The notes under the pieces: generated by a model
What the model was told of the DNA's origin: nothing
Databases searched by the model: none
What the model saw: the letters and a program-made list of their open reading frames with translations, nothing else
Position numbers and translations under genes: made by a program
Assembly: GCA_024653945.1 (NCBI GenBank)
Contig: JANLIT010000002.1
Coordinates: 80,255-144,254 of the forward strand
Direction: 5' to 3'
Length of the DNA stretch: 64,000 bases
DNA from: Candidatus Campbellbacteria bacterium
GTDB taxonomy: Bacteria > Patescibacteriota > Minisyncoccia > Phycocordibacterales > EsbW-18
Shown: piece by piece, positions 7,209 through 64,000 of the stretch
How the letters are laid out: every line of letters begins with the position of its first letter
Numbering within the stretch: the stretch's first letter is position 1

Positions 7209-7218
7209 GGCTTACTAC

Positions 7219-11157: not shown

Positions 11158-12090
11158 CTACTCTTTTTCGCGATTAGTGTGAAACTTGCTGTGGACTTCT
11201 TTGAGGTGTTTGTCCGTCACGTGTGTATAAATTTGCGTCGTGGTGATGTTAGCGTGACCAAGAAGCGCTTGTACGCTTCGTAAATCGGCACCATTCTCCA
11301 GTAGATCAGTGGCAAATGAGTGGCGAATGACGTGTGGTGTTACTTTTTTGCTAATACCAACCTTAATCGCATATCGTTTTACCAATCTTTCAACAGAGCG
11401 CGCGGTGAGACGCAAATCTTTTGCATTCTTTGACGCTTTTCCAAACTGAATGAACATCGCATCATCCATGTCGGTTCGTTTCTTCAAATAGTCGTTGACG
11501 GCATCACGCGCGGAAGGGGAGACAAACACAACACGCACCTTTTCACCTTTTCCACGAATGGAAAATTCCCCGCGTGACAAATCAATATCTCGAGGAAGTG
11601 ACACCAGCTCTGACACGCGCATGCCTGTTGAAAAAAGAAGTTCCAATAATGCCTTATCACGAAGAGCGCCGACCAAATCGCCCTCGGGCGCTTTCATAAT
11701 GCGGACCAATTCAACTGGCGTAATCAAATCAAGGTCGCGATCTCCGACTTTTGCGAGTTCAATGGCTTCTGGTTGGAGTGTTGTAATGTTTCGTTTGCGT
11801 AAAAATTTCAAGAATGCCCGTAAGGCAATCAAATAATAATTTTGTGTGTTCTTTTTGAGCGTTCCGCTGTTTTGTGCTTCATGTTTCATGGTTCGTGCCT
11901 GCTGACGATTGAGCCACAAACGAAACTCGCGCACGGATGTTTCGGTGATATCAACAGGTTTAGAAATCTTAGAAAAACCAACAAATCTTGAGAGGTACCT
12001 ATCATAGTTTTCAATCGTCTTGGTAGAGCGCCCACGTTCAATCTCAAGGTATTCAAGAAATTCGTGTTTTAATTTTTCAACAGGGTTCAT
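11158..12090 (-). CDS. Tyrosine recombinase, XerC/XerD family
   Basis: N-terminal SAM-like domain (EFLEYLEIERGRSTKTIENY), catalytic LRHSFATDLLENGADLRSVQALLGHANITTTQIYTHV, R..H..RY motifs. The ATG lies within the left flank of MITE copy d. Confidence 0.85.
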   Translation of the reverse strand: MNPVEKLKHEFLEYLEIERGRSTKTIENYDRYLSRFVGFSKISKPVDITETSVREFRLWLNRQQARTMKHEAQNSGTLKKNTQNYYLIALRAFLKFLRKRNITTLQPEAIELAKVGDRDLDLITPVELVRIMKAPEGDLVGALRDKALLELLFSTGMRVSELVSLPRDIDLSRGEFSIRGKGEKVRVVFVSPSARDAVNDYLKKRTDMDDAMFIQFGKASKNAKDLRLTARSVERLVKRYAIKVGISKKVTPHVIRHSFATDLLENGADLRSVQALLGHANITTTQIYTHVTDKHLKEVHSKFHTNREKE

Positions 12091-13666: not shown

Positions 13667-13794
13667 TTCCTTGCACGCAAGGACTGCAAAATATCAAATA
13701 CCAAATGACAAACAATCCTGTTATCATTTGGATTAAGGTCGTTGAATTTTTTTGATATTTGTTATTTGAACTTTGTAATTTATTTTAAATATTT

Positions 13795-17789: not shown

Positions 17790-20042
17790 ATGAAAAGCAA
17801 AACATTTGAGGTGGCCTTTGGTAACAAGACCCTCTCCGCAGAGTTTAACGACCTCGCCATGCAGGCGAACGGTTCGGTGATTGTTCGCTATGGCAACACC
17901 GCCGTTCTTGCAACTGCAGTCATGGGTTCAAAGGAACGTGAAGGACTGGATTATTTTCCTCTCACCGTTGATTACGAAGAAAAGTTTTACGCTGCGGGAC
18001 AAATTCTTGGAGGCAAGTACATGCGCCGAGAAGGGAAGCCGTCGGATGAAGCAATTCTCTCTGGTCGCGCAGTGGACCGCACAGTGCGTCCGCTCTTTGA
18101 CCAGCGTTTGCGTATTGAGGTGCAAGTTGTCACGACCATTCTTTCAATTGGAGAAGACGACCCAGATGTTATTGCCATTCTTGCAGCATCTCTCGCACTC
18201 AGCGTGTCAGATATTCCATGGGCAGGACCAGTTGGTGCAGTTCGTCTTGGGCGAACACCAGACGGCGCGTGGATAATTAACCCAAACTACGAAGAACGCA
18301 AAACAAATGTGCTTGATTTGCTTGTATGTGGTGCACAACAAAAGGTGAACATGATTGAAACGGGTGCACACCAAGTTTCTGAAGACATTATTATTGAAGG
18401 ACTCACCAAAGCAGTTGAAGAAATTACAAAACTTGAAACATTCCAAAACAATATCATCAAAGAATTAGGAAAAGAGAAAAAAGTATTCACATTTCCAACA
18501 CTCACCGATGCTACTCTCGCACTTTTTGAAAAAGAAATCACACCACAACTTACAGATGCCGTGTTCTGTGGTATTTCTGGTGGAGAAAAAGTTGGTGAAC
18601 TACACCACGCATGGCATGAGCTCCTCAAAACAAGTGCACCCGAGGAAAGTCGTGAACTAGCAGACTTATATTTTGAAGAAAAAGTTGAAGCGGTGTTTGA
18701 CGTTGGAATTCTTTCAGGTAAACGACCTGATGGACGCGACTTTGATACAGTTCGAGAAATCTACACACAAGCAGGAGGCGTTGCGCCAATGCTTCACGGT
18801 GCGGGTGTCTTCTACCGAGGTGAAACACACGTGCTTGCAGCACTCACGCTCGGTGGTCCTGAAGCGGTACAAGAAATGGAAGGGATGGAGGTCAAAGGCA
18901 AAAAAAGCTTTATGTTACACTACAATTTTCCTCCGTACTCAACAGGTGAAACGGGGCGCATGGGTGGCACTAACCGCCGCATGATTGGTCACGGAGCACT
19001 CGCAGAAAAAGCACTCTCCGCCGTTATTCCTCCAAAAGAGCAATTCCCATACACCATTCGTATTGTGTCAGAAGTGATGTCATCAAACGGTTCATCATCA
19101 ATGGGTTCCGTGTGCGGAGGAACGCTTGCACTTCTTGATGCGGGTGTGCCTATTCTTGCCCCTGTTGCAGGTATTGCGATGGGAGTAGTTATTGAAGAAA
19201 TATCAAATGACAAATCACAAATAGCAAAGTATAAGGTGCTTACGGATATTCAAGGACCGGAAGATCACTACGGTGACATGGACTTCAAAGTTGCAGGAAC
19301 GCGCGACGGTGTGACCGCAATGCAAATGGATGTGAAAGTTGCTGGAGTTCCACTTTCTGTTTTTCCAGAAGCATTTGAAAAAGCAAAAAAAGCGCGTCTC
19401 TTCATTTTGGATAAAATTGCAGAGACATTACCAACACACCGTGCAGAAATGAATGTACACGCACCACGTATTCTCGTCACAAAGATTAAAAAAGAATTTA
19501 TTGGTGCAGTGATTGGTGGCGGAGGAAAAACAATCAACCAAATCCGTGAACTAACCGGAACAGAAATTACGATTGAAGAAGATGGAACGGTCTTCATCAC
19601 AGGAAATGTTGAAGGGGCAGAGAAAACAAAGAAAATTATTGAAGGGATTGCGCGTGAGTATCTTGTTGGAGAAAAGTTCGAGGGTGTTGTCACACGCATC
19701 GCAGACTTTGGTTTGTTTGTGCGCATGGGCGATGAAAGCCCATTATCTGGAATGAAGGACACTGAAGGACTCGTGCACATTTCTGAAATTGCACCGTTTC
19801 GTCTTGCATCAATGGACGGTGTTGCAAATGTTGGAGACAAAGTACCCGTCATCATCAAAGAACTTGGTGAAGAAGGAAAAATTAAACTCTCTATCAAAGA
19901 TGCTGATCCTGAATTTGCCGTACGCAAAGGTTTGAAAGAGGGAACTTCCGCTGGAGGAGATTTCCGTTCAGGTGGAGACCACCGACACAGTTCTGGAGGA
20001 TACCGAGGTGGTTCAAGCCACCACAGCGGGCCACGGAGATAG
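17790..20042 (+). CDS. pnp: Polyribonucleotide nucleotidyltransferase (PNPase)
   Basis: 750 aa with two RNase PH domains, KH (IGAVIGGGGKTINQIRE) and S1 (GEKFEGVVTRIADFGLFV) domains, and a Gly/Ser/His-rich C-terminal tail. Confidence 0.92.
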   Translation: MKSKTFEVAFGNKTLSAEFNDLAMQANGSVIVRYGNTAVLATAVMGSKEREGLDYFPLTVDYEEKFYAAGQILGGKYMRREGKPSDEAILSGRAVDRTVRPLFDQRLRIEVQVVTTILSIGEDDPDVIAILAASLALSVSDIPWAGPVGAVRLGRTPDGAWIINPNYEERKTNVLDLLVCGAQQKVNMIETGAHQVSEDIIIEGLTKAVEEITKLETFQNNIIKELGKEKKVFTFPTLTDATLALFEKEITPQLTDAVFCGISGGEKVGELHHAWHELLKTSAPEESRELADLYFEEKVEAVFDVGILSGKRPDGRDFDTVREIYTQAGGVAPMLHGAGVFYRGETHVLAALTLGGPEAVQEMEGMEVKGKKSFMLHYNFPPYSTGETGRMGGTNRRMIGHGALAEKALSAVIPPKEQFPYTIRIVSEVMSSNGSSSMGSVCGGTLALLDAGVPILAPVAGIAMGVVIEEISNDKSQIAKYKVLTDIQGPEDHYGDMDFKVAGTRDGVTAMQMDVKVAGVPLSVFPEAFEKAKKARLFILDKIAETLPTHRAEMNVHAPRILVTKIKKEFIGAVIGGGGKTINQIRELTGTEITIEEDGTVFITGNVEGAEKTKKIIEGIAREYLVGEKFEGVVTRIADFGLFVRMGDESPLSGMKDTEGLVHISEIAPFRLASMDGVANVGDKVPVIIKELGEEGKIKLSIKDADPEFAVRKGLKEGTSAGGDFRSGGDHRHSSGGYRGGSSHHSGPRR

Positions 20043-20141: not shown

Positions 20142-20230
20142 TTGACAAATATTATTATTTATGTATAATGGAGTTTGGACATACCCAACCCGAGTATTCC
20201 ACTTGAGTTGGTTCGAGAACGGGGGGAAAA
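20142..20230 (+). promoter_or_regulatory. Promoter (TTGACA-16-TATAAT) plus conserved leader hairpin of small-membrane-protein cassette 1
   Basis: TTGACAaatattattatttatgTATAAT, then TACCCAACCCGAGtattccaCTTGAGTTGG, a 9/10-bp stem. It is homologous to 29099-29192. Confidence 0.55.
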
Positions 20231-22268: not shown

Positions 22269-22321
22269 ATTTCCCAAAACGAAGTCCCGCCTCTTGTAAG
22301 AGGCGGGGCGTTTCTATTTTC

Positions 22322-22367
22322 TTTTCCCGACGTTTCGGTCGGGACCCCGACCGTAGCGTCGGGGCTA
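22322..22367. repeat. Two-hairpin 46-bp repeat, copy B
   Basis: CCCGACGTTTCGGTCGGG plus ACCCCGACCGTAGCGTCGGGG, followed by CTACTTACTAC. Confidence 0.65.
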
Positions 22368-22445
22368 CTTACTACATTCTACTTATTATTTTCTTATTCT
22401 TTTTTGAGTTTTGGATTTCACATTTTAGTTTTATACTATTCATAT

Positions 22446-24340: not shown

Positions 24341-24343
24341 ATA

Positions 24344-24392
24344 GTAGCCCCGACGCTATGGTCGGGGTCCCGACTGAAACGTCGGGAAAAGT
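24344..24392. repeat. Two-hairpin 46-bp repeat, copy C (inverted orientation), immediately 3' of the DksA-like stop
   Basis: The reverse complement reads CCCGACGTTTCAGTCGGG plus ACCCCGACCATAGCGTCGGGG. Confidence 0.65.
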
Positions 24393-24405
24393 AGAAAGCA
24401 AAAAG

Positions 24406-25414: not shown

Positions 25415-26977
25415 GTGTCCTTCGCAAAAGTATACAGTGCCCAAACGTCTCTACTCGCGGCTCATATTATTTCCGTCGAGGTGGATGTTTCTAATGGTCT
25501 TCACGCGTTTTCAATTGTGGGACTTCCTGACAAGGCGGTTGAGGAATCTCGCGACCGCGTATCTGCCGCAATAAAAAATAGCAATTTTGAATCGCCCAAA
25601 AGTCGCAACCAAAAAATAGTTATCTCTCTTGCACCGGCCGATATCAAAAAAGAAGGGCCATTGTTTGATGTTGCCATTGCACTTGCATATCTGCGTTCAC
25701 AAGACGATATTCGTTTTAATCCAGAGAAAAAATTATTTCTCGGTGAACTTTCTCTTGATGGGGACGTTCGGCGCATCAGTGGTGTTCTTCCTCTTGTTAT
25801 CAAAGCACAACAAATGGGTTTCACGGAGGTGTTTGTGCCAAGCGACAACACGGCAGAGGCTGCGCTTGTTCGAGGGATTTCCGTGTTTGGTATACGCACA
25901 CTCAAAGAACTCATTGTTCATCTCAATGAAAAGAAAAATCCTGATGATGACGGTAATGATATTCCTAAAATAAAAATACCAACAACACCCGAGACAGAAT
26001 ACATTCCAACGGTTGCACAACACAGTATTGATTTCTCAGATGTGCGCGGACAAACAACGGCAAAACGCGCTCTAGAAATCGCCGCCGCAGGCGGACACAA
26101 CATCGCACTGTGGGGTCCGCCCGGTACAGGAAAAACACTCCTTGCAAAAGCACTCGTGGGTATTCTTCCACCACTCTCATTTGATGAAATGTTAGAAGTA
26201 ACAGCGATTCATTCTGTTGCAGGATTACTTAAAGAACACACCGTCACACACCCACCGTTCCGCTCACCTCACCACACGAGTTCATATGTTTCACTCGTTG
26301 GTGGGGGTGCATTTCCAAAGCCCGGAGAAATTACGCTTGCACATCGTGGTGTTCTTTTCCTAGATGAATTTCCTGAATTTGATAGGCGCGTGATTGAAAG
26401 TTTGCGACAACCACTTGAAGACCGCGTCGTGTCTGTTGCTCGCGTCCGCGGAAGTGCGCAATTTCCTGCAGATACACTCTTGGTCGCCGCACTCAACCCT
26501 TGTCCGTGCGGTAAATGGGGAAGTGGGCGCGCGTGCACCTGCTCACCCCATATTCTTCTTCACTACCAACGGAAAATATCTGGACCAGTGATGGATAGAA
26601 TTGATTTGTGGGTTGAGGTTGCACCGGTTGAACACGCGGACCTTTCTCGTGGAGGGGACGGTGAAGCAAGCGCTGTTGTGCGAGAACGTGTACTGTCTGC
26701 GCGAGCTCTACAGACAAAAAGATTTGAAAACACTACCCGTAGAAAAAACAGCGATATGAATGTGCGGGACCTAGATATATTCACGCCTCTCACAAAAGAG
26801 GTCCGCGACATTCTCAACACATCAGCAAAAAAGTTGGACCTCTCAGCACGTGCGTACCATCGAGTTATTAAAATTGCACGCACCATTGCCGATTTAGAAA
26901 ATACAGAACACATAGAACGCCATCACATTCTTGAAGCGCTCCAATATCGTCCGAAAATGTTTGGAGCTGGAATGTAA
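25415..26977 (+). CDS. comM: YifB/ComM-family Mg-chelatase-like AAA+ ATPase
   Basis: GTG start. The N-terminal ChlI-like domain aligns with YifB from residue 1. Walker A GPPGTGKT. Cys cluster CPCGKWGSGRACTC. Typical C-terminal domain. Confidence 0.85.
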   Translation: MSFAKVYSAQTSLLAAHIISVEVDVSNGLHAFSIVGLPDKAVEESRDRVSAAIKNSNFESPKSRNQKIVISLAPADIKKEGPLFDVAIALAYLRSQDDIRFNPEKKLFLGELSLDGDVRRISGVLPLVIKAQQMGFTEVFVPSDNTAEAALVRGISVFGIRTLKELIVHLNEKKNPDDDGNDIPKIKIPTTPETEYIPTVAQHSIDFSDVRGQTTAKRALEIAAAGGHNIALWGPPGTGKTLLAKALVGILPPLSFDEMLEVTAIHSVAGLLKEHTVTHPPFRSPHHTSSYVSLVGGGAFPKPGEITLAHRGVLFLDEFPEFDRRVIESLRQPLEDRVVSVARVRGSAQFPADTLLVAALNPCPCGKWGSGRACTCSPHILLHYQRKISGPVMDRIDLWVEVAPVEHADLSRGGDGEASAVVRERVLSARALQTKRFENTTRRKNSDMNVRDLDIFTPLTKEVRDILNTSAKKLDLSARAYHRVIKIARTIADLENTEHIERHHILEALQYRPKMFGAGM

Positions 26978-27018
26978 TAACAAATTTCAAATGACAAATA
27001 GCAAATGACAAACAATAT

Positions 27019-27558
27019 ATGAAAGCACTTACCTTAGAAACACTTGCGGAACGAATTTACTTCATTCGCAATAAACGAGTAATGACCGATAGTGATTTGG
27101 CAGAATTATATGAAGTAACAACAAAAGTACTCAACCAAGCAGTCCGAAGAAATATGGAGCGTTTTCCAGAAGATTTTATGTTTCAACTCACCAAAGAGGA
27201 GAACTTGATATTCCAAAGTGGAACATCAGGTTCTAGATATTTGAAGTCACAGTTTGTGACTTCAAGGTCGTGGGGTGGCCGACGCAAGCCAGTGTTCGTA
27301 TTTACTCAGGAGGGAGTTGCCATGCTTTCTGGAATACTTCGTAGCCCAAGGGCGGTGCAAGTTAATATTGTCATTATGCGCGCATTTGTGCATCTTCGGG
27401 AAATACTTTCCACACACAAAGAGCTTTTGCAACGACTTATCGAGCTAGAGAAAAAATACGACGAACGGTTTAGAATTGTGTTTGAGGCAATTCAGCAGAT
27501 GATGCGCGAACCAGACCCGCCAAGACATCCAATTGGATTTCAACCAAACACCAAATAG
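27019..27558 (+). CDS. ORF6N-domain (KilA-N-like) DNA-binding protein
   Basis: The N-terminal IYFIRNKRVMTDSDLAELYEVTTKVLNQAVRRNMERF fits the ORF6N/KilA-N family. Confidence 0.6.
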   Translation: MKALTLETLAERIYFIRNKRVMTDSDLAELYEVTTKVLNQAVRRNMERFPEDFMFQLTKEENLIFQSGTSGSRYLKSQFVTSRSWGGRRKPVFVFTQEGVAMLSGILRSPRAVQVNIVIMRAFVHLREILSTHKELLQRLIELEKKYDERFRIVFEAIQQMMREPDPPRHPIGFQPNTK

Positions 27559-27590
27559 TTTTGAATTTTGATATTTGAAATTGGTCATTA

Positions 27591-27626
27591 AGCATAAAAA
27601 CCGCCATCACTGGCGGTTTTTATGCT
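27591..27626. terminator. Bidirectional terminator with a 16-bp stem
   Basis: AGCATAAAAACCGCCA-TCAC-TGGCGGTTTTTATGCT. Confidence 0.7.
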
Positions 27627-27746
27627 TTGGGTATTTCTAGATCAAAACCCGTAGTGCGTGACCCCACTCACTACCGGCTCCACCCTAGAATTTCTTTACT
27701 GTTTTTCTCATGTGCTTTCTACTTTCTACCTACATACTATCTACTA

Positions 27747-27760
27747 CATACCAGCTACCA
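27747..27760. repeat. Intergenic copy of the 14-mer CATACCAGCTACCA within a (TACNNN)n tract
   Basis: Identical to the tandem 14-mers inserted in pcrA at 30218-30245. It lies just 3' of the M23 peptidase stop. Confidence 0.6.
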
Positions 27761-27764
27761 TTCT

Positions 27765-28793
27765 TTAGAACGGATTCGTTGCTCCACGAACCTCAAAGTG
27801 AACATGCGAGCCAGTTGAGCGTCCTGTTGAGCCAACATAACCAATCACATCACCCTGCGCCACGGTCTGACCAACTGAAACTGCATTACTACTGTTGTGG
27901 GAGTACAGCGTCTGTGTTCCGTTATCATGCTTAATAACCACGTAGTTTCCATATCCACCATTCCACCCACCACTTGAAGAAACGATGACCTCCCCCGCGG
28001 CCGCTGCCCAAATCGGCGTCCCTGCTGGAGAGCCAATGTCAATACCATTATTTCCATGCAATCCCTGAGTCTTAATACCCCTTGTTGGTCGCATATAGTA
28101 TCCCGCGTATGTGGGACCCGCATATGCACGAGACGCCCCACCAACTGAGCTTTTTGACGGTACGGCAACAATTTCACCATCAGGAATGATAATCTCACTT
28201 CCAACGGCAAGGGCGGAGTCAATCTCAATACCGTTATACTGCAAAATTTCATCCAAATCACCCTTGTACTTCTTGGCAATACTCTTTACCGTATCACCCT
28301 TCTTCACTATGTGTTGAATTCCTGTAACTGGCAAAATGACGAGTGTCTGGCCCGGTCGAATGAGTGATTTTCCTGAAAGGTCATTTGCCCAACGAATGGT
28401 ATTGATGGAAACATTAAACATGTCCGCAATCGTGGAAAGAGAGTCACCCTCGCGGACGATATATGTGGAAATTTGGTCAGATGTTGCTGATAGTCGTCGC
28501 TCATCAGCTATTGGGTTGTCGTTGTATGCAAGGGCAACACCGTAGATAATATTGGAATGTGTTGCCACAGCAAACTTTGGATTGGGATTTCCTGTGCTTT
28601 CTAAAAGGGGTATGTTGAGCGATGTAAGGTGAATTCCCGGAAATTCCTCTTGAGCACCTACTGACGGCAAGAAACCATAGATACCCAGCAAGGCCCCATA
28701 TGAAACGAAAGGAAGCACCGTGGCGAGTATACGAAAAACAAAACCACGCCAGAAGCGCTGTGACTGAAAACCGTGTTTCATCCGACTCGTCAA
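27765..28793 (-). CDS. LysM-domain M23-family peptidoglycan endopeptidase
   Basis: Two LysM repeats (DSLSTIADMFNVSINTIRWAN; DTVKSIAKKYKGDLDEILQYN) and the M23 motifs HxxxD...GSTGRSTGSHVHFE. Confidence 0.8.
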   Translation of the reverse strand: MTSRMKHGFQSQRFWRGFVFRILATVLPFVSYGALLGIYGFLPSVGAQEEFPGIHLTSLNIPLLESTGNPNPKFAVATHSNIIYGVALAYNDNPIADERRLSATSDQISTYIVREGDSLSTIADMFNVSINTIRWANDLSGKSLIRPGQTLVILPVTGIQHIVKKGDTVKSIAKKYKGDLDEILQYNGIEIDSALAVGSEIIIPDGEIVAVPSKSSVGGASRAYAGPTYAGYYMRPTRGIKTQGLHGNNGIDIGSPAGTPIWAAAAGEVIVSSSGGWNGGYGNYVVIKHDNGTQTLYSHNSSNAVSVGQTVAQGDVIGYVGSTGRSTGSHVHFEVRGATNPF

Positions 28794-29098: not shown

Positions 29099-29192
29099 TT
29101 GACAAATACTATAATTCGTATATAATAGCGTCTGAATGTACCCAACCCGAGCATTTCGCTTGAGTTGGCTCAAAAACAAGGGGAGATGTCCC
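29099..29192 (+). promoter_or_regulatory. Promoter (TTGACA-16-TATAAT) plus conserved leader hairpin of small-membrane-protein cassette 2
   Basis: TTGACAaatactataattcgtaTATAAT, then TACCCAACCCGAGcatttcgCTTGAGTTGG, ending in SD GGGGAG. It is homologous to 20142-20230. Confidence 0.55.
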
Positions 29193-29710: not shown

Positions 29711-29780
29711 TATTCTCGTCTCTGCCACCACTATCGCCCGCCGGCCAAGCAACATGCACAAGCATGTGCTCGGTCGGCGG

Positions 29781-29890
29781 TTTTTCTTTTCTACTTTCTA
29801 CTTACTACTTTCTACTCGTTTAGGTTTCGGATTTCGATATTCGAATTTCGTATTTTCATTGATTATTGGTGCTTGGTTATTGGTCATTTC
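29781..29890 (+). repeat. ~110-bp upstream repeat, copy 2, upstream of pcrA
   Basis: TTTTTCTTTTCTACTTTCTACTTACTACT...TTTCGGATTTCGATATTCGAATTTCGTATTTTCATTGATTATTGGTGCTTGGTTATTGG aligns with 25265-25373. Confidence 0.6.
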
Positions 29891-29984
29891 TTACCGCTTA
29901 CTACTTACTACTTTCTACTCTTGTTTGTATTTTGTTATTTGCCATTTGATATTTGCTATTTGGCCACCATGCTATTATGCGTCC

Positions 29985-31946
29985 ATGCACTACCTTGAAA
30001 GCCTCAATCCTGCACAAAAACGAGCTGTTTCACATACTGACGGTGCTCTTATGATTATTGCTGGTGCCGGGACAGGAAAGACACGCGTCATAACCACCCG
30101 CATACTCCACCTTATTAATAGTGGTGTCCTTCCCGAGAAGATTCTCGCCATTACCTTCACCAATAAAGCGGCGACCGAGATGCGCGAACGGGTTGGACAT
30201 CTCCTTGGAACCGACCTACATACCAGCTACCACATACCAGCTACCACCTCTCCTTTTGTGGGAACCTTTCATTCCCTCGGTGTCAAAATCTTGCGAGAAA
30301 ATGTGACACGTCTTGGTGTGACAAAGTACTTCACCATTTTTGACCGCGATAATTCTCTTTCGGCAATCAAACGAATTGTAAAAGACCTCGGATTAGATCC
30401 CAAACAACATTCACCAAACGCATTTCTCTCCGTTATTTCAAAAAACAAAGGCGAGGCAACAACACTTTCAAAGTTTAAGGAAAAAAGTGGGCTCAACTAT
30501 TTTGAGCGACTCGTTGTTCCTGTGTGGGAGAAATACGCCGAGGTGCTTACAAAAGAAAAAGCATTTGATTTTGATGATTTACTTCTTTCTACATTGGAAC
30601 TCCTCAAAAAGAATCCAGATATTCTTGAACACTACCAGAAGCGTTGGTCACACATTCACGTTGATGAGTATCAAGACACCAACACGGTGCAGTATGAACT
30701 CACCAAACTACTCGCGAGCGGACATGGGAATATTTGTGTTGTCGGTGACCACGACCAATGCATTTACACATGGCGAAGTGCCGACATGCGCAATCTCGCG
30801 CGATTTGAAAAAGATTTCTCCCACGTAACAGTTGTGATGTTGGAAGAAAATTATCGTTCAACACAAACAATTCTCTCTGCAGCAAATAGCGCCATCGCAC
30901 AAAATGAATTTAGAAAAGAAAAGAATTTGTTTACTAACAGTGCTGATGGAGCAAAAATAGAACTCTACACTGCGGCAAATGAAAATGACGAAGCAATGTG
31001 GATTGCTGCGCGTGCTGCAGAATTAATTGCGTCTGGTACTCCCGCAAACGAAATCGCCGTGTTGTTTCGTGCAAACTTTCAGTCACGCGTACTTGAAGAA
31101 GCGTTTCTCAACACGCACGTACCATACCAAATGCTTGGTGTACGTTTTTTTGAACGAAAAGAGGTGAAGGATATTCTCTCGTACATTATTGCCGCACTTA
31201 ATCCAGACAGCACAACCGCTATTTCTCGAATTATAAATGTTCCAGCGCGCGGTATTGGAAAAACAACACTCCTTAAAATTCTTTCATACCAAGAACATGA
31301 CTTGCCAGCAAAGATGAAAGAAAAGATTGAACGATTTCGTGCGCTACTTGGACGCATTGCGGAATACACCCACACACACAAACCATCCGAGGTAGTTAAA
31401 TTTGTCATCAAAGAAAGTGGAATTGAATTAGACCTCATACATGGAGGTGATGACGACATTGAACGTCTCGCCAACATGAAAGAGCTCGCCACACTCGCGG
31501 TGCGATATGACACTCTTCCACCAGAAGAGGGCGTCTCAACATTTTTGGAAAACGCATCACTGGCAAGTGATCAAGACGCACTCCGCAATGACGAATCATC
31601 GGTGAAACTTATGACCATTCACGCTGCAAAAGGGCTTGAATTTGCTCATGTTTTTATTTCTGGTCTTGAAGAGGGGCTCTTTCCCGATGAACGAAGTGAG
31701 ACGCGCGAAACACCCGAGGAACGCGAGGAGGAACGCCGACTTTTTTATGTTGCACTCACACGTGCACGACACCAAGCACATCTTTCGTACGCATTTATCC
31801 GCACCATTTTCGGAACACCAACCATCAACACACCGTCACGATTTATAACTGAAATGGATAGTGAGCTTGTGGAAGATGTTACCCCTACAAATGAGTGGAA
31901 ACCCCAAGGAGGTTTTGGAAAAGGCCTTTTGGATATAGATTTTTAA
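29985..31946 (+). CDS. pcrA: UvrD/PcrA-family ATP-dependent DNA helicase carrying an in-frame low-complexity insertion
   Basis: Walker A AGAGTGKT, motifs TFTNKAA, VDEYQDTN, and the C-terminal helicase domain. The start is taken at MHYLESLNPAQKRAV; the upstream in-frame extension in the ORF track is low-complexity. An insert DLHTSYHIPATTSP is encoded by tandem CATACCAGCTACCA. Confidence 0.85.
   Translation: MHYLESLNPAQKRAVSHTDGALMIIAGAGTGKTRVITTRILHLINSGVLPEKILAITFTNKAATEMRERVGHLLGTDLHTSYHIPATTSPFVGTFHSLGVKILRENVTRLGVTKYFTIFDRDNSLSAIKRIVKDLGLDPKQHSPNAFLSVISKNKGEATTLSKFKEKSGLNYFERLVVPVWEKYAEVLTKEKAFDFDDLLLSTLELLKKNPDILEHYQKRWSHIHVDEYQDTNTVQYELTKLLASGHGNICVVGDHDQCIYTWRSADMRNLARFEKDFSHVTVVMLEENYRSTQTILSAANSAIAQNEFRKEKNLFTNSADGAKIELYTAANENDEAMWIAARAAELIASGTPANEIAVLFRANFQSRVLEEAFLNTHVPYQMLGVRFFERKEVKDILSYIIAALNPDSTTAISRIINVPARGIGKTTLLKILSYQEHDLPAKMKEKIERFRALLGRIAEYTHTHKPSEVVKFVIKESGIELDLIHGGDDDIERLANMKELATLAVRYDTLPPEEGVSTFLENASLASDQDALRNDESSVKLMTIHAAKGLEFAHVFISGLEEGLFPDERSETRETPEEREEERRLFYVALTRARHQAHLSYAFIRTIFGTPTINTPSRFITEMDSELVEDVTPTNEWKPQGGFGKGLLDIDF
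30213..30252 (+). repeat. In-frame tandem 14-mer (CATACCAGCTACCA x2) inside pcrA
   Basis: Positions 30218-30231 and 30232-30245 are identical, and identical to intergenic 27747-27760. Confidence 0.65.
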
Positions 31947-32007: not shown

Positions 32008-32808
32008 ATGGCACACCGTGCAAAAAAAGAACTTGGACAAAATTTTTTGAAATCTAAACTTGCGATTAGCAAAATCGTTGAAGTGGCTTCCTTATCCGCA
32101 ACAGACACCGTTCTTGAAATTGGACCAGGCAAGGGAGCACTTACACGAGCACTCCTTGATACTGGATGCACTGTTATTGCAATTGAAAAAGATGGTGAAC
32201 TTATTGTATTGTTGCAAAAAACTTTTGCAGAAGAGATTGCATCAAAAAAACTAACACTGATTCAAGGCGACATTCGCACTGTTGATTTTTCTCATTACCT
32301 GCTACAAGCTACGAGCTACAAGCTCATTGCCAACATTCCCTACTACATCACGGGAGAAATTTTAGAATTATTTCTTGAACACGGACCACAACCAGAACGC
32401 ATTGTGGTACTTGTACAAAAAGAAGTTGCACAACGAATTGTAGCACGTGATAAAAAAGAAAGTATTCTCTCACTGTCGGTGAAAGCGTATGGCACACCGA
32501 AGATTGTGATGAATGTGTCAAAGAAATATTTTTCTCCTGCACCAAAAGTTGATTCGGCCGTGTTGTGCATTTCAGATATTTCAAAAAAGAAATTTGCAGG
32601 TGGTGATGAAAAGAAATTTTTTACACTCGTCAAAGCTGGCTTCGCACACAAACGAAAACAACTCGTCCCGAATCTTGCGAGCCTGGTACCAAAAGAAACG
32701 CTTTCGCGTTTCTTGACGGAGCACGGACACTCCGCGAGGGAGCGTGCGGAGGAATTGTCGGTTGATGATTGGCTTGCGTTATCTCAAACTACAAATCCGA
32801 CCCTGTAA
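32008..32808 (+). CDS. rsmA: 16S rRNA (adenine1518-N6/adenine1519-N6)-dimethyltransferase
   Basis: GQNFL, SAM-binding VLEIGPGKGALT, and NIPY motifs. The start is taken at MAHRAKKELGQNFL. Confidence 0.85.
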   Translation: MAHRAKKELGQNFLKSKLAISKIVEVASLSATDTVLEIGPGKGALTRALLDTGCTVIAIEKDGELIVLLQKTFAEEIASKKLTLIQGDIRTVDFSHYLLQATSYKLIANIPYYITGEILELFLEHGPQPERIVVLVQKEVAQRIVARDKKESILSLSVKAYGTPKIVMNVSKKYFSPAPKVDSAVLCISDISKKKFAGGDEKKFFTLVKAGFAHKRKQLVPNLASLVPKETLSRFLTEHGHSARERAEELSVDDWLALSQTTNPTL

Positions 32809-40445: not shown

Positions 40446-41108
40446 GTGGTGGTTAATATAGTACATTGTATGAACGAAGAATCTCAAAAAATCATCAAAG
40501 AAAAATTTGCCCAGCTTCCTCCTGCTTTACAAAAAGCATTTACGGAGATTGATCTTTTGGGTCGTGTGCGAAATATCATAACCAAAAATAATCTGCGAGT
40601 GGACGACGGGGGGTTGTTTGAGGATGAGGTTATGTTTATATTACTTGGTTTAGAGCATCCAAATAACTTTATTGCGAACCTTACCACCCGACTGCATGTT
40701 CCCCTTATCACTATTGAAAAACTTGTTATTGATGTAGAGAAGGAAGTTTTTCTTCCTGTGAGAGAGTCCTTGATGAAGATGTTTCCAACTGGGGAACACG
40801 GAGCAACCCCCGAAAAACTACCTGTCGCACCAGCAACGTCTCAACAACACTCCCCAACCGTTATCTACCCGCAAAAACCCGCCGTACAAGCACCAGTATC
40901 ACAAGCGGTACCTCCTGCAAATCTTCCAATCACACCACAACCACAGACAGCCCCTGGACTAACCCGCACACTTCCAAAAGATATTGTACAAACAAAACTT
41001 GAACAAAGTTTCCGCATGCCTCCAACAACGACAACCATTAAAGAAAGTACGCCACCAACACCTGTGACACAAAAGGTGGTAGATCCGTACCGCGAACCAA
41101 CTGAGTGA
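40446..41108 (+). CDS. Hypothetical protein with a Pro/Thr/Gln-rich C-terminus (alternative start at 40470)
   Basis: The ORF track starts at GTG 40446. The first ATG (MNEESQK) is at 40470. Confidence 0.4.
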   Translation: MVVNIVHCMNEESQKIIKEKFAQLPPALQKAFTEIDLLGRVRNIITKNNLRVDDGGLFEDEVMFILLGLEHPNNFIANLTTRLHVPLITIEKLVIDVEKEVFLPVRESLMKMFPTGEHGATPEKLPVAPATSQQHSPTVIYPQKPAVQAPVSQAVPPANLPITPQPQTAPGLTRTLPKDIVQTKLEQSFRMPPTTTTIKESTPPTPVTQKVVDPYREPTE

Positions 41109-41196
41109 CATGTAGCATGTAGCACGAAGCATGTAACATGTAGCTTGAAACAAGAAGTTTTAGAAAAAATTTAGGACAGGGAGTTATTGTATACTG

Positions 41197-41559
41197 GTGA
41201 ACAAAAACTCACCGGAAACATTTCATCAAAAACTTCAAACATTGATGTACTCTTTTGTGCACAGTGTCTATGATGCAACTAAAACATTCCCCGGAGACGA
41301 GATTTTTGGTGTAACAAGTCAACTGCGTCGAGCAACACTATCTGTTGCCCTAAATTATACAGAGGGATACGCTCGTCATGGTAAAAGGGAGCTTGCTCAT
41401 TTTCTTAAGATTTCTTATGGCTCACTCAAAGAATCCATGTATCTTGTGCAGTTTGCTAAAGACAGAGAGTGGATATCTCTAGAAACACATCAAAAACTGT
41501 ACCAAATGGGGGATGAGATTGGTAAAATGTTGTGGTCAAGTTTTTCACATATGACATAA
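41197..41559 (+). CDS. Four-helix-bundle protein (23S rRNA intervening-sequence protein family)
   Basis: FHQKLQTLMYSFVHSVYDATKTFPGDEIFGVTSQLRRATLSVALNYTEGYAR...LKISYGSLKESMYLVQFAKD matches the TIGR02436-type family. Confidence 0.6.
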   Translation: MNKNSPETFHQKLQTLMYSFVHSVYDATKTFPGDEIFGVTSQLRRATLSVALNYTEGYARHGKRELAHFLKISYGSLKESMYLVQFAKDREWISLETHQKLYQMGDEIGKMLWSSFSHMT

Positions 41560-41605
41560 GATATATAACGTGTATCATGTAGCATATAATGCACAACAAA
41601 AATAT

Positions 41606-41633
41606 GTTACATGTTTCGTGTTACATGTTTCGT
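41606..41633 (+). repeat. Tandem 14-bp direct repeat GTTACATGTTTCGT x2, immediately upstream of the PrgI-like gene
   Basis: 41606-41619 and 41620-41633 are identical. Related CATGTAGC/CATGTAAC motifs cluster at 41109-41150 and 41576-41590, flanking the four-helix-bundle gene. Confidence 0.55.
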
Positions 41634-41641
41634 GTCCTACC

Positions 41642-48483: not shown

Positions 48484-49218
48484 CTACTTACTACTTACTA
48501 CTTTTTCCGTATCCAATTTCTTTCGTATCATTCCTTCTTGTGCAATTGAAAAAAGGTTGCTTGTTGTCCAGTACAGAGCGACACTTGCTGGGAGTGCGTA
48601 TGAAATAAACACAATGATGACAGGGAAGACATATTTCATTTGGAGTGACATACTTTTTGCAAAATCTGCACCAAACCCCTTTTTACTTCCAACCTCTGGC
48701 GCCTTCATAAAGTACGCTTGAAAAAATTGAGAAACACCAGCAAGAACGGCTAGGGGTATGCTTTTTTGAGCAACATCAAGAAATCCAAGAAACATTGTTG
48801 AAATAGAACCTGGGTTTGATACAAATGAGTACAGAAAATCGGGGTGAATTTCAGGTAATCCTGTACGCACAAACATGTAATACAGCCCAAAAATAATGGG
48901 AATTTGGACAAGGAGAAAGAAGATACTTGCAAAAGGATTTACCTTATATGCCTTATACAGCTTCATCGTTTCCTGTGCTTGTCTGGCTGAATCATTTTTA
49001 AACTTTGTACGCACCTCATCCATCGCGGGCTGAATATTTTGCATTGCCATCTGTGTTCGAAGCGCTTTTTGTGCAAGAGGAAAGAGAATAAATCGTACGA
49101 TAACCGTAAAGACAACAACAATCACACCCAGGTCCGCCCACGGAAGTGCGTGCATGAGAATTACAACACCGTTGTAGAGAGGTTGTGTAACGAGTGTAAA
49201 GAAAAAACCTTGAGACAT
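48484..49218 (-). CDS. yidC: Membrane protein insertase YidC/Oxa1 family (short form)
   Basis: Five TM helices with the conserved Oxa1/YidC core (PLAQKALRTQMAMQNIQP...VNPFAS). The C-terminal ...VVSSK* is encoded by CTACTTACTACTTAC. Confidence 0.85.
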   Translation of the reverse strand: MSQGFFFTLVTQPLYNGVVILMHALPWADLGVIVVVFTVIVRFILFPLAQKALRTQMAMQNIQPAMDEVRTKFKNDSARQAQETMKLYKAYKVNPFASIFFLLVQIPIIFGLYYMFVRTGLPEIHPDFLYSFVSNPGSISTMFLGFLDVAQKSIPLAVLAGVSQFFQAYFMKAPEVGSKKGFGADFAKSMSLQMKYVFPVIIVFISYALPASVALYWTTSNLFSIAQEGMIRKKLDTEKVVSSK

Positions 49219-49236
49219 GAGCGTATTGTACTCTTT

Positions 49237-49566
49237 TTAGGAGGAGCGTCTAGTGAGTGTGTCGCCAAGCTCTTTTTGTATTTCGGCAGGAGTCGCCACA
49301 AACGGTTTTGAAAGAATAATGATGTAGTGTCCTGCAAAAGTATTTTGTTCTTTTGAGAGATTTTCTATCGCGGAATATATTTTTCTTCGTAATGCATTTC
49401 TACCTACTGCTGTACGAATATGTTTTTTAGGAACAACAACTGCCCATTGTGTTTTTGTGGGAGAGGGGAGGTGTCGTATAGCAAAGTGTGGTGTACGAAT
49501 AAGTGCGCCAGCTGAAAATGCTGTATCAAACTGTTGTGTGGAGAGTCGTTTGTTTTTAGAAAGCAT
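49237..49566 (-). CDS. rnpA: Ribonuclease P protein component
   Basis: KNKRLSTQQFDTAFSAG..IRTPHF...RNALRRKIYSAIENL is the RnpA RNR motif. Located immediately downstream of rpmH. Confidence 0.8.
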   Translation of the reverse strand: MLSKNKRLSTQQFDTAFSAGALIRTPHFAIRHLPSPTKTQWAVVVPKKHIRTAVGRNALRRKIYSAIENLSKEQNTFAGHYIIILSKPFVATPAEIQKELGDTLTRRSS

Positions 49567-49578
49567 GAAGCCGGGGGC

Positions 49579-49713
49579 TTATGCAGAAATCTTTTTTCGT
49601 CCCTTGGCACGACGTCGTTTAATCATTCGTCGTCCTGTTGATGTTCTCATACGAACACGAAACCCGTGTGTCATTGCTCGCTTTCTTTTCTTTGGTTGAT
49701 ATTTTCGTTTCAT
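49579..49713 (-). CDS. rpmH: 50S ribosomal protein L34
   Basis: Hand-translated as [44 protein letters not shown]. Not in the ORF track because it is under 60 aa. Confidence 0.85.
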
Positions 49714-49974
49714 ACGATTTCACAAAATCGCGTCGCGCAAGTGTTGATTTTACGAAATCATGTCACGTACCGTCAATTGAGACGTGACACAGAGCGCGAC
49801 GGGTGCTGGGTGATTAGTTTGGTAGTTAGTAAAAATTGTTGACTTTTGTACTATGTGTTTTGTGTTACCTATTTTATGCTTCCGTTGTCCCCATATTATT
49901 AACATAGTTTTCATATTTTTTCAAGCTCACGGCTTGGAGAAGGAGTATATAATAACCAGGCATCAAATCTCCAA

Positions 49975-51339
49975 ATGAACATCACACCAACAGACACAAA
50001 AACATTATGGAAAGAAGTTCTTGGAATGATAGAGCTAACGGTGTCTAAGGCGGTATTTCGGACATGGTTTAAAGACACCCACATCGTCAAGGTAGAGGAC
50101 GGGGTGGTATTTGTGGGTGTTCCAAACCTCTTTGCAAAGGATTGGGTGTCTGAAAAACACCACAAAATGATATTGAAGAGCCTCCGTGACATATCAGACA
50201 CCATTCGGTCTGTTGAATACATCATTTCTACAAAAGCACCAAGTGAGACCAAGATACAATCATATACTCAGGTTTCCCCCGGAAACTCGCCCGACGAACT
50301 TCCTCTACGAGACCTCTACATCAATAAATTAGACAACCTTAACCCGCGATACACCTTTGACACGTTTGTGGTTGGGTCATTCAACGAGCTCGCCTATGCG
50401 GCCGCACAGGCGATTTTAGAGCGCCCCGGAACACGATATAACCCATTTTTTGTGTACGGGCAGACCGGTCACGGGAAAACACACCTTATTCAAGCAGTGG
50501 GAAACGAGATGCGAAAAAAATATCCGGACAAAAAAGTGTACTACGTAACATCTGAACGATTTGCACAAGATCTTGTCAATTCAATTCAACTTAATACAAC
50601 AAGTAATTTTAAAGAAAAATATAGAAAGTTTGATGTGTTAATTATGGATGATGTCCAATTTCTTTCAAATAAAGAAAAAATGCAGGAGGAGCTCTTCCAT
50701 TTATTTAATGAAATTTATGATAAAAATGGTCAAATTATCTTTTCCTCGGATAGACACCCTAACTATATACAAAGCCTTGCTGAACGTCTTAAATCACGCT
50801 TTAACGCTGGTATGACGGTGGATATACCGGCGCCTGATTCTGAGTCACGAATGGCGATTGTAAAAACGAAAGCGGCTGAAAATAATATTGTGTTGTCTGA
50901 TGAGATTGTAACCTACCTATCACACTCCATGGATGGAAACATTCGGGAGATTGAGGGGGCGCTTAACTCAATTATGTGCCAAATTTTACTCAAAAAGAGA
51001 GATTTAAGCCTTCAAGAAATTAAAGAGGTGGTTAAAAACAATATAAAACCGAAAAAAATGGTTGCTGTGAAGGATGTGGTAAAGATTGTTGCTGGTTTTT
51101 ACAATCTTGATGAAGAAAGTATTTATAAAAAGAGTCGTAAAAAAGAAGTGGTAAAACCACGGCAGGTAATTATGTATATTCTTCGTGAAGATTTTGCACT
51201 ACCATATCCAACCATTGGTCAAAAACTTGGTGGGAGAGACCACACAACGGTTATTCATTCGTATGAAAAAATTAAAAGGGAATTAGAAACAGATCATCAG
51301 TTGGGCCAAGAATTAACTCAGGTTCGTGCGATGTTATAG
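49975..51339 (+). CDS. dnaA: Chromosomal replication initiator protein DnaA
   Basis: Walker A GQTGHGKTHL, box VII, and the C-terminal DNA-binding HTH (GQKLGGRDHTTVIHSYEKI). Confidence 0.92.
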   Translation: MNITPTDTKTLWKEVLGMIELTVSKAVFRTWFKDTHIVKVEDGVVFVGVPNLFAKDWVSEKHHKMILKSLRDISDTIRSVEYIISTKAPSETKIQSYTQVSPGNSPDELPLRDLYINKLDNLNPRYTFDTFVVGSFNELAYAAAQAILERPGTRYNPFFVYGQTGHGKTHLIQAVGNEMRKKYPDKKVYYVTSERFAQDLVNSIQLNTTSNFKEKYRKFDVLIMDDVQFLSNKEKMQEELFHLFNEIYDKNGQIIFSSDRHPNYIQSLAERLKSRFNAGMTVDIPAPDSESRMAIVKTKAAENNIVLSDEIVTYLSHSMDGNIREIEGALNSIMCQILLKKRDLSLQEIKEVVKNNIKPKKMVAVKDVVKIVAGFYNLDEESIYKKSRKKEVVKPRQVIMYILREDFALPYPTIGQKLGGRDHTTVIHSYEKIKRELETDHQLGQELTQVRAML

Positions 51340-51574
51340 GTGTGGATATGTTTTGTATAAGTGTGTGTAGTACTTCTGTATAAATAGAGTAAGAAATGTG
51401 TTTAAAAAACGTATAAAAACCTAAAAATCTGAACATCGCTTTTTTAATCATTTTTTATCTTCCCTCTATACAATTCAATTCACAAGGCACTTTCTAAAAA
51501 ACCAATACAACACACGGCCTTAAAAACTTATACACATATTCACCCTCTTAATAGTAATAATAAGTTTTATATAT
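51340..51574. other. Candidate oriC (AT-rich dnaA-dnaN intergenic region with DnaA-box-like 9-mers)
   Basis: TGTGGATAT at 51341-51349 is 8/9 of TGTGGATAA. TTATACACA at 51528-51536 fits TTATNCACA. The region is AT-rich and lies between dnaA and dnaN. Confidence 0.35.
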
Positions 51575-52675
51575 ATGAAAATACTCCTACAAAAAGAACA
51601 TCTGTATAACGCTCTGGTGGCAACAGAAAGAGTCACTGGAAAAAATCTTTCTCTCCCAGTTCTTCGGTGTGTTCTTTTGATTGCAGAAAAAAAAGAGCTT
51701 GTTGTGAGGGCAACAAACTTAGATATTGGAGTTGAAGTACGAGTTCCCGCAGATGTTTCAGAAGAGGGAACGGTTGCTGTTCCTGCAGACACTCTTTTTA
51801 CACTTCTTTCCACACTTTCTTATGAAGGTCCACTAACTCTTTCTCTTGTAGACGGATCAATTGTGCTTTCAACGCCAAAAAGTACAACCCGTGTTGCCAC
51901 ACTTTCTCATGAAGATTTTCCACGATTACCAAAAATATCAGACAATCATCTTTTTACTATTCAGGCAAAAGATTTTGTTACAGGACTAAAAAGCGTGTGG
52001 TGGAGTGCCTCGGTTTCAAGTATTAAACCAGAACTTTCAAGTATTTATTTATACCAAAACGGCGAACACCTTGTGTGTGTTGCAACAGACTCGTTTCGTC
52101 TTGCTGAGAAAAAAATAAAAATTTCAAAAACAGAAAAACTTGACTCACTTCTTATTCCACTTAAAAACGTCGTTGAAATTATACGGCATCTTGAAAATTT
52201 TTCCGGCGACATTTCTGTGTATGGAGACGTACACCAGATTGGCTTTACGCTTGGAAACACGTACATCACCTCCCGTGTTGTTGACGGAGTATTTCCAGAC
52301 TACAAACAAATTATTCCGAAAACATTTGAAACAGAGATGACACTTTTAAAACAAGATCTTGCAGATGCACTTAAACATGTTCGAATTTTTTCAGGACAAT
52401 TTAATAAACTATTGGTTAGTATTAACCATACAAAAAAACAATGTGTCGTTCAAACAACAAACCCTGAATCGGGTGAAAGTAGCGTCTCTCTTGATGCGGC
52501 AATTACAGGTCCGGATATTACTATGAGCTTTAATTATGCGTACATACTTGATGCTCTCCAAACGGTTGCAACAGATTCAGTAACCCTACAATTTGCTGGG
52601 GTTGGAAAACCAACACAAATTCGCAGTGTGGGAGATCAATCATTTTTGTACATTGTGATGCCAATGAACCGATAA
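51575..52675 (+). CDS. dnaN: DNA polymerase III beta sliding clamp
   Basis: 366 aa with a three-domain clamp architecture. Positioned immediately after dnaA. Confidence 0.88.
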   Translation: MKILLQKEHLYNALVATERVTGKNLSLPVLRCVLLIAEKKELVVRATNLDIGVEVRVPADVSEEGTVAVPADTLFTLLSTLSYEGPLTLSLVDGSIVLSTPKSTTRVATLSHEDFPRLPKISDNHLFTIQAKDFVTGLKSVWWSASVSSIKPELSSIYLYQNGEHLVCVATDSFRLAEKKIKISKTEKLDSLLIPLKNVVEIIRHLENFSGDISVYGDVHQIGFTLGNTYITSRVVDGVFPDYKQIIPKTFETEMTLLKQDLADALKHVRIFSGQFNKLLVSINHTKKQCVVQTTNPESGESSVSLDAAITGPDITMSFNYAYILDALQTVATDSVTLQFAGVGKPTQIRSVGDQSFLYIVMPMNR

Positions 52676-52935: not shown

Positions 52936-52945
52936 GTGTATTTAT

Positions 52946-53031: not shown

Positions 53032-53033
53032 AC

Positions 53034-63665: not shown

Positions 63666-64000
63666 ATGAAAAGGGTGGAATGCCAGTCGCTGGATGAGGT
63701 GGGCAAGCTCGCACGAGCTTTTTTGGGTACCCTTGTGTCTAGGGAAGATGGGGCAACACTTGTCATCTTAAAAGGGGATCTTGGTGCGGGTAAAACCGCA
63801 TTTGTAAAAGAAACGGCGCGATTGCTCGGCATTACGGAACACGTAACAAGTCCGACGTTTGTTATTGAAAAACGCTACACACTTCCTTCCGGCTTACTAC
63901 CTACTACTTCCTACTTTCGCTCCCTCGTCCACATCGATGCATACAGGATGGAAAGTGCACATGAGCTCGAGGTGCTTGGGTGGCAAGAACTTTTGAAAGA
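63666..64000 (+). CDS. tsaE: tRNA threonylcarbamoyladenosine biosynthesis protein TsaE (5' part; continues beyond the window) with an in-frame low-complexity insertion
   Basis: P-loop GDLGAGKT, then TSPTFVIEKRY. An insert GLLPTTSYFRS is encoded by GGCTTACTACCTACTACTTCCTACTTTCGC (63891-63920) before the conserved HIDAYRM. Confidence 0.65.
   Translation, partial: MKRVECQSLDEVGKLARAFLGTLVSREDGATLVILKGDLGAGKTAFVKETARLLGITEHVTSPTFVIEKRYTLPSGLLPTTSYFRSLVHIDAYRMESAHELEVLGWQELLK

Follow-up and report, generated by a model that had tools for sequence, protein, structure and literature searches.

The stretch analysed here, hereafter the window, comprises 64,000 nucleotides of a Candidatus Campbellbacteria contig and carries a pcrA/uvrD gene on the plus strand (29985..31946; ATG at 29985, 653 aa), the product of which is identical to MCR4274620.1 of a Candidatus Campbellbacteria metagenome-assembled genome (MAG). 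Inside this gene lies a 33-nt array of heptamers (30214..30246, plus strand) in which ACCTA precedes two exact copies of CATACCAGCTACCA (30219-30246), with the period-7 run reaching 30250. The 14-mer is itself composed of two phased heptamers of the form NNTACCA (CATACCA and GCTACCA), and the tandem is therefore four phased heptamers long. Tandem Repeats Finder called both period 14 and period 7 at 30218-30247, along with dozens of other tracts in the window, and the lag-7 run score of the pcrA tract was 16/21. Codons 77-90 (30213-30254) read DLHTSYHIPATTSP, flanked by ...ERVGHLLGT and FVGTFHS, and the frame is open throughout.

CATACCAGCTACCA was found at exactly three sites in the window, all on the plus strand: the two tandem units (30219-30232 and 30233-30246) and one copy outside genes at 27747-27760. 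None of 100 shuffles contained three matches, even with two mismatches permitted. The similarity between the two loci is longer than the 14-mer, as 27728..27760 (plus strand) matches 30214-30246 at 30 of 33 positions, with the second 14-mer exact, and the match includes a 15-nt exact stretch that deviates from the consensus of the CTACTTN family. A related genome from an independent assembly (L001) also carries the pcrA tandem, with one mismatch, and so the tandem is not an assembly artefact; pcrA is in frame and of equal length in both array carriers. A sequence-only reading of this DNA had reported the identity of the tandem units to the intergenic 14-mer, an unbroken frame between ERVGHLLG and VGTFHS, and a repeat-derived peptide in a second gene, tsaE. 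All three observations were reproduced, as was the general point that repeat-derived codons stand in frame inside conserved housekeeping genes. Its further claims, of an intergenic 14-mer inserted into pcrA and of a pattern like that of Rickettsia palindromic elements (RPEs), had to be revised.

In an AlphaFold2 model of PcrA (mean pLDDT, the predicted local distance difference test score, of 83), residues 78-90 (LHTSYHIPATTSP; 30216..30254, plus strand) are modelled as coil that links the helix of motif Ia (60-77) to the strand of motif Ib (91-94). Block means of pLDDT are 64-69 for residues 71-90, compared with 83 and 92 in the adjoining blocks. Alignment placed the repeat residues in a variable loop and not at conserved positions, as had been expected from the sequence. 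In an alignment to 1PJR and 2IS1, the segment from motif Ia (FTNKAA) to motif Ib (GTFHS) exceeds that of Geobacillus PcrA and of E. coli UvrD by 9 aa. However, the loop is as long as that of the window in nearly all of 120 homologues from Patescibacteria (candidate phyla radiation, CPR), and array-free sister alleles do not differ from it in length. Among the PcrA proteins that cluster with it at 90% identity or more, no fewer than four unrelated loop sequences are found, two of which are different 14-mer tandems: two copies of CATACCAGCTACCA in the window and L001, two copies of CCAATATCAAATAT in L170 (5 aa longer), the array-free TTPTSGSRETRVPT in L171 and P0245, and the array-free TAPSGDARQPHAHT in L002, the latter two loops being of the same length as in the window. 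A DNA alignment of the window, L171, and L002 is gap-free over the loop, where identity is 55-60%, versus ~80% elsewhere in pcrA. This gapless, equal-length alignment to array-free alleles shows that the array replaced loop sequence without lengthening the gene, i.e., a length-neutral replacement and not an insertion. In a relative whose PcrA is ~74% identical (L172), the same loop holds a 54-nt in-frame palindromic insertion (L172 4225-4297) in which GGGAACA heptamers precede their inverted complement, TGTTCCC (hairpin of -17.7 kcal/mol, z = -4.1), and its sister alleles, >90% identical, have a loop of 5 aa only.

The pcrA tract belongs to a larger set of arrays. A scan of the window over all lags (at least 15/21 matching positions) recovered 21 arrays at lag 7, 14 at lag 14, 8 at lag 21, and 0-5 elsewhere, while 100 second-order Markov simulations gave a mean of 0.45 and a maximum of 3 arrays at lag 7. 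Period 7 with its multiples is the sole enriched repeat period in the window. Two thirds of the lag-7 arrays (14/21) lie in the 9.2 kb of intergenic DNA, two overlap gene ends, and five are wholly within genes, namely those for an XerC/D-type recombinase, PNPase, PcrA, KsgA, and TsaE. Typical intergenic positions are those that directly follow stop codons or terminator hairpins and those just 5' of promoters or start codons. The unit differs from array to array (e.g., CTACTTN, CAAATNN, ATTGGTN, TTTCGNA, and CATACCA/GCTACCA). An Rfam scan returned only five tRNAs, none of them near the arrays, and no known RNA family or tRNA fragment matched the arrays; a promoter and terminator scan added little.

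Some intergenic arrays are worth describing individually. One heptamer array (41601-41635) occupies the 5' untranslated region (5'UTR) of prgI, after a TATAAT box at ~41582, and another (41103-41149) lies between an unannotated gene without a Pfam match (40446-41108) and an Avd-like (23S_rRNA_IVP) gene. At the two equivalent positions, L001 likewise bears arrays, the units of which are entirely different. Downstream of rpsO (13667-13794), AAATNNC and inverted TTTGNNA arrays form a long imperfect hairpin (-25.2 kcal/mol, z = -2.6), and paired inverted arrays may therefore double as terminators.

The arrays in the other four genes also sit in variable loops. The ksgA/rsmA array (32294..32330, plus strand; GCTACAA GCTACGA GCTACAA) shares its register with the conserved TAC AAG CTN (YKL) codons, and the length of the loop is unchanged versus orthologues. 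In L170 the ksgA units are GCTATAA, fitting the TAT codon of that lineage, so that the codon variant (TAC vs TAT) is lineage-specific throughout the units, and L001, L171, and L002 have no array at this site. The array in pnp, the PNPase gene (19194..19231, plus strand; AAATATC AAATGAC AAATCAC AAATAGC), encodes EISNDKSQIAK, and the PNPase loop exceeds those of L002 and L001 by 6 and 2 aa, respectively. In tsaE (63886..63920, plus strand; CTTACTA CCTACTA CTTCCTA CTTTCGC) the array forms the loop between SPTF and HIDAYR, where CTTACTACCTACTACTTCC (63893-63911) encodes GLLPTTSYFRS directly ahead of HIDAYRM. The sequence-only reading regarded this tract as an insert as well, and in comparison with the short-loop relatives P0123, P0126, and P0127 the loop does have 6 additional aa; the loops of L167 and L168, however, equal it in length and are built of CAAAT-type and CCAGTCT-type heptamers, so that heptamer arrays in three relatives differ from one another but agree in length. 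TsaE of L169 has a short loop without an array. A weak array in the gene for the XerC/D-type recombinase (11867..11898, minus strand) falls in the N-terminal domain and adds 1 aa relative to L002. At protein ends, the unrelated Xth (7262-8074, minus strand) and YidC (48484-49218, minus strand) both terminate in ...VSSK*, and these tails (7262-7283 and 48484-48514) are the GTAGTAAG orientation of a CTACTTA heptamer array, from which the stop codon also comes.

Arrays at the PcrA loop were also seen in other lineages. Scanning 136 non-redundant pcrA/uvrD genes (296 kb of coding sequence; period-7 threshold of 16/21) yielded seven period-7 arrays, five of which are in the motif Ia-Ib loop with a different unit each time: AGTCACG x3 in L005, ATCTCCA x4 in L080, TTTACCA in L015, AAATAAC in L026, and GACTTAG in L135, a Peribacteria MAG. 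The non-triplet control lags 5, 8, 10, and 11 gave 0, 3, 1, and 0 arrays in the same genes. A further period-7 array was present within the few fetched kb at 6/6 loop-array loci, compared with 26/133 of the others (Fisher p = 1e-4). This association with neighbouring arrays indicates that, where a genome is rich in arrays, they have repeatedly come to occupy the PcrA loop.

The intergenic copy of the 33-mer lies in the fast-evolving part of an array-bearing insertion of ~75 nt (27691..27765, plus strand), immediately 3' of the stop codon of an M23 peptidase gene (27765-28793, minus strand) and flanked by direct TAGAA copies (27686-27690 and 27766-27770). This insertion is absent from L002, L005, and L171. 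L001 has an insertion at the M23 site with the left half in common but a different right half, without the 14-mer. A copy outside genes exists, as the sequence-only reading had stated, but the direction that it had assumed, from the intergenic site into pcrA, is argued against by the pcrA copy being the one common to lineages, as L001 has it and lacks the intergenic copy. The 14-mer is carried by two loci in the window, and L001 and L167 carry related 14-mers elsewhere. Just past the M23 peptidase stop, an intergenic segment of ~65 nt (27626-27690; TTTGGGTATTTCTAGATCAAAACCCGTAG...CTACCGGCTCCACCCTAGAA) is conserved in L001, L002, L005, L171, and L172, and the stretch holding it is the best-conserved between the window and L001 (91%).

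Five consecutive arrays (TTTCTAC, TTTCGNA, ATTGGTN, CTTACTA, and TTTGNNA) make up a 187-nt block upstream of pcrA (29779..29965, plus strand), which spans the distance from the terminator hairpin of the upstream gene to the extended -10 box of pcrA, TGCTATTAT, 7 nt 5' of the ATG. Copy numbers in this block differ in L001 and L170 (e.g., ~2 copies of the TTGGTTATTGGTNC unit in the window vs 4 in L170), and the block is absent from L171. Array density likewise varied, with 0.33 arrays per kb in the window, 0.64 in L001, 0.66 in L170, 0.34 in L167, and 0.06 in L002, and none at all in 10 kb of L171 and 6.7 kb of L169. This is a more than 10-fold spread among lineages with similar distances to the window genome and to each other. 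The window, L001, and L171 are mutually about equidistant, at ~82% nucleotide identity (ComM, M23, PcrA, and KsgA).

pcrA itself is mosaic, with a C-terminal third that is 97% identical to the L171 allele, compared with 90.5% for L001, and an N-terminal third that is nearer to L001, which points to homologous recombination among co-occurring Campbellbacteria. Because pcrA is mosaic, the conflict between the loop and the PcrA tree is only apparent; in the neighbouring genes the three lineages are about equidistant. A recent recombination tract that brought in the loop was considered and rejected, given that the flanking identity between the window and L001 is ordinary. Near the M23 site, an ORF6N-domain gene (27019-27558) is bracketed by CAAAT-type arrays in inverted orientation (26976-27015 and 27555-27589). 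The gene is absent from L001, L002, and L171 (L001 retains the right-hand array) and present in L005, and it looks like an indel bounded by arrays.

Other elements were noted in the window. A double-hairpin element of ~60 nt (CCCGACGTTTCAGTCGGG then CCCCGACCACAGCGTCGGGG) occurs three times (7205-7266, 22311-22369, and 24343-24404) at 90-95% identity and in both orientations, and runs directly into a CTAC heptamer array in two of the three copies; it looks like a dispersed terminator or a repetitive extragenic palindromic (REP)-like element. In an 86-nt duplicate (20142-20227 and 29099-29184, 78% identical), a leader accompanies a consensus TTGACA/TATAAT promoter ahead of small open reading frames (ORFs). 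The leader contains a CCCAACCCGAG...CTTGAGTTGG hairpin. L001 and L005 conserve the copy at 29099-29184, which stands in front of an ORF for a small membrane protein. The duplicate has no Rfam match and may be an unrecognised leader or riboswitch. Inverted pairs of a ~14-nt motif (TCCCGTTAGAGA ... TCTCTAACGGGA) are found at 1937-2009, 8026-8160, and 52936-53037, with a spacing of 50-115 nt, and a solitary copy of this family is at 2499-2518. Finally, the gene order yidC-rnpA (minus strand) then dnaA-dnaN (plus strand) at 48484-52675 is suggestive of a chromosomal replication origin within the window, near 49.6-50.0 kb; the cumulative GC skew instead has its minimum near 34 kb.

Among known repeats, the pcrA tract has the properties of heptameric simple sequence repeats (SSRs), i.e., head-to-tail units, a period-7 excess, and variation between relatives. 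According to PMC4692102, heptamers are over-represented among bacterial SSRs, with polymerase slippage proposed as the origin and the polymerase footprint proposed as the reason for the excess. That paper names GGGAATC in Xanthomonas and GGGGA(T/C)T in Nostoc as examples, citing a 2007 survey of prokaryotic SSRs. The arrays described here resemble those repeats in being 7-nt tandems that are strongly over-represented, mostly intergenic, and variable between close relatives at shared sites. They differ in that a single G-rich unit dominates there, whereas dozens of A/T/C-rich units are found here, and in that arrays are here also present in internal loops of essential enzymes. Tandem heptamers between genes are shared with the short tandemly repeated repetitive sequences (STRRs) of Calothrix and Nostoc, as cited in PMC4692102. 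A further likeness, very short repeated sequences scattered over the genome, is to the small dispersed repeats of Nostoc, reportedly described by Elhai et al. in 2008. Both kinds of repeat nonetheless belong to another phylum and have other unit sequences. To the best of our knowledge, the consensus units of cyanobacterial STRRs are absent from the units found here, and we know of no description of STRRs that includes the occupancy of coding loops.

The TAACTGA direct repeats of marine Beggiatoaceae lie near start and stop codons, with a minority in ORFs, at protein termini (PMC4679880). Heptamers near gene ends are common to both cases, as is the rule that inside ORFs only the stop-free orientation is tolerated (PMC4679880), but Beggiatoaceae have a single unit located at termini, whereas the units here are diverse and five arrays are in internal loops of conserved enzymes. 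Borg genomes have fast-evolving tandem repeats that, like ours, are intergenic as well as in ORFs, lineage-specific, and often flanked by partial repeats (PMC9879509). Genic Borg repeats have unit lengths that are all divisible by three and make amino-acid repeats (PMC9879509), unlike the unit of 7 (or 14) nt here; with such a unit, only the net length of an array can keep the frame intact. The literature searched yielded no report of heptamer arrays from Patescibacteria.

We interpret the pcrA tandem as a member of a genome-wide population of 7-/14-nt arrays, that is, as a heptameric SSR phenomenon, broadly akin to the cyanobacterial STRRs, generated by slippage or template switching, with the arrays in loops filtered by selection, and we give this interpretation a probability of roughly 60%. 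It builds on the observed periodicity, locations, copy-number and presence/absence variation, and length-neutral replacement, and the heptamer excess among bacterial SSRs (PMC4692102) fits slippage. The further arrays near loop-array loci, the differing TsaE arrays of one length, the codon register of the ksgA array, and the low-confidence coil of the PcrA loop also speak for it. Strand slippage or template switching in a 7-nt register would account for local birth, homogenisation, and turnover of arrays. Arrays could expand freely in non-coding DNA, where by location they fill the spacers after terminator hairpins or stops and before promoters. In coding DNA, selection would leave just the stop-free, frame-preserving outcomes in structurally permissive segments, and the requirement for frame and structure would thus direct arrays to hypervariable surface loops of PcrA, KsgA, PNPase, TsaE, and XerC. 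At the C-terminal tails of Xth and YidC, the array in GTAG orientation provides the stop codon, and the pcrA array is probably translated plainly, as LHTSYHIPATT. The 14-mer shared over 2.5 kb would reflect short-tract copying between two CTAC-type arrays, with copying more likely to have run from pcrA to the intergenic site, or with a third array as the source of both. Length neutrality may have been reached by paired +7/-7 events, 21-nt steps, or short-tract conversion.

Several observations weigh against this interpretation. Slippage by 7 or 14 nt shifts the frame, so length-neutral replacement needs paired events, 21-nt steps, or conversion, none of which was directly observed. The pcrA array is also unexpectedly well conserved between the window and L001, with 2/33 differences and 0/11 at third codon positions, compared with 42% of third positions differing gene-wide (p = 0.003) and 21% in the 60-nt flanks. 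Outside genes, the array at 27555-27589 is near-identical to L001 8045-8079. Moreover, the unit families CAAATNN, CTACTTN, ATTGGTN, and CATACYAKCTACCA recur at non-orthologous sites and in other genomes (e.g., CATACYAKCTACCA-type arrays at the intergenic sites L001 2782-2811 and L167 4475-4517), which weighs on a purely local birth of arrays since local birth does not predict such recurrence. Together, the silent-site conservation, the near-identical intergenic array, and the recurring unit families keep alive two other explanations, in which the sequences are copied and pasted or act in cis.

The first of these, which we consider unlikely, is that a very small mobile or copy-pasted sequence of ~33 nt, similar to RPEs, transposable elements of the miniature inverted-repeat type (MITEs), or small dispersed repeats (SDRs), landed in frame in pcrA. 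The presence of one 33-mer at two loci would be explained in this way, as would the related CATACYAKCTACCA arrays at non-orthologous sites and the 5-nt direct repeat at both ends of the insertion with the intergenic copy; the lack of silent differences between lineages would suit a recent acquisition, and the more distant L172 does have a palindromic in-frame insertion in the same loop. On the other hand, the flanking identity between the window and L001 is not elevated, the unit is present at just two loci in 64 kb while ~20 arrays have other units, and a search of the annotated ORFs turned up neither a transposase nor a reverse transcriptase. With a size of ~150 bp, RPEs are palindromic, fall into ten families, and add residues (PMC10969869). 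The likeness to them lies in repeat-derived peptides that are in frame in unrelated housekeeping proteins, at structurally tolerant sites (PMC10969869), and an addition of residues of the RPE or MITE kind was found for TsaE (+6 aa) and PNPase (+6 and +2 aa). It was not found for PcrA, which is no longer than array-free alleles, and the pcrA tract is 28-33 nt, tandem and not palindromic, and lacks inverted repeats. The idea of a hairpin element was rejected for this tract, which folds at -7.8 kcal/mol, no better than its shuffles (z = +0.95), while the intergenic copy folds at 0 kcal/mol. Every array also has its own unit. The RPE-like pattern proposed by the sequence-only reading was thus not supported for pcrA.

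Similarly improbable, in our view, is that the arrays are selected cis-elements (e.g., heptad sites for a DNA- or RNA-binding protein) or that the pcrA unit is a frameshift-prone switch, with the copies in genes retained in both cases for what they do as nucleotide sequence. Conservation of the pcrA array at silent sites and of the intergenic array at 27555-27589 would be expected of cis-elements, as would the persistence of array positions with changing units (prgI 5'UTR, upstream of pcrA, TsaE loop) and the recurrence of unit families across genomes. In addition, TTTGNNA units resemble -35 hexamers and adjoin the pcrA -10 box, and the TAACTGA heptamers of Beggiatoaceae were proposed as regulator binding sites (PMC4679880). 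Yet the arrays are dispensable, because the sister lineages L171 and L002 are wholly without arrays at the same sites; the arrays also have no common unit, occur in many contexts (after stops, before promoters, in 5'UTRs, and in loops), and have no Rfam match. As for a switch, a unit of 7 or 14 nt inside the pcrA ORF, being no multiple of three, is what a phase-variable contingency locus has, but two perfect 14-mers only are short for phase variation at a high rate, and both carrier lineages are in frame.

A diversity-generating retroelement (DGR) origin was also considered, as the three mismatches between the copies all fall on minus-strand adenines (~1% by chance), and was rejected: the minus strand is the antisense strand of pcrA, whereas a DGR template differs at sense-strand adenines, the changes simply make the two pcrA units identical, and no reverse transcriptase domain was detected in the 40 ORFs scanned. 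Only a 23S_rRNA_IVP/Avd-like gene (41197-41559) is present. Finally, although the arrays are C/A/T-rich and CTAC-type arrays are generally ~80% alike, chance resemblance, low-complexity composition, or an assembly artefact has next to no probability and is effectively refuted by the shuffles and the L001 tandem, in addition to the 30/33 match with its exact stretch off the CTACTTN consensus and the intact pcrA frame.

Beyond the SSR interpretation, some Campbellbacteria lineages might possess an active process that rewrites or copies sequence in a 7-nt register, or the arrays might have a function as heptad cis-elements, their silent sites being conserved even where they lie in genes; we regard this as doubtful, though worth stating. 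If true, such a process would continually overwrite unconstrained DNA in a length-neutral manner, including the loops of essential enzymes, and would spread a small set of unit families genome-wide. Since sister lineages that are ~82% identical lack it, it would point to a specific genetic determinant, e.g., a replication or repair variant or an unknown enzyme. The arrays show how proteins of an ultra-small genome can be remodelled by a repeat process with a non-triplet unit, and one loop of an essential helicase has been rebuilt from different 7-nt repeats across CPR lineages while its length was kept. Array loops are of no use in phylogeny and can be misleading when insertions are called; they also show where PcrA, KsgA, PNPase, and TsaE are structurally permissive, and the array-rich and array-poor sister lineages provide a natural comparison for the control of heptamer repeat instability.

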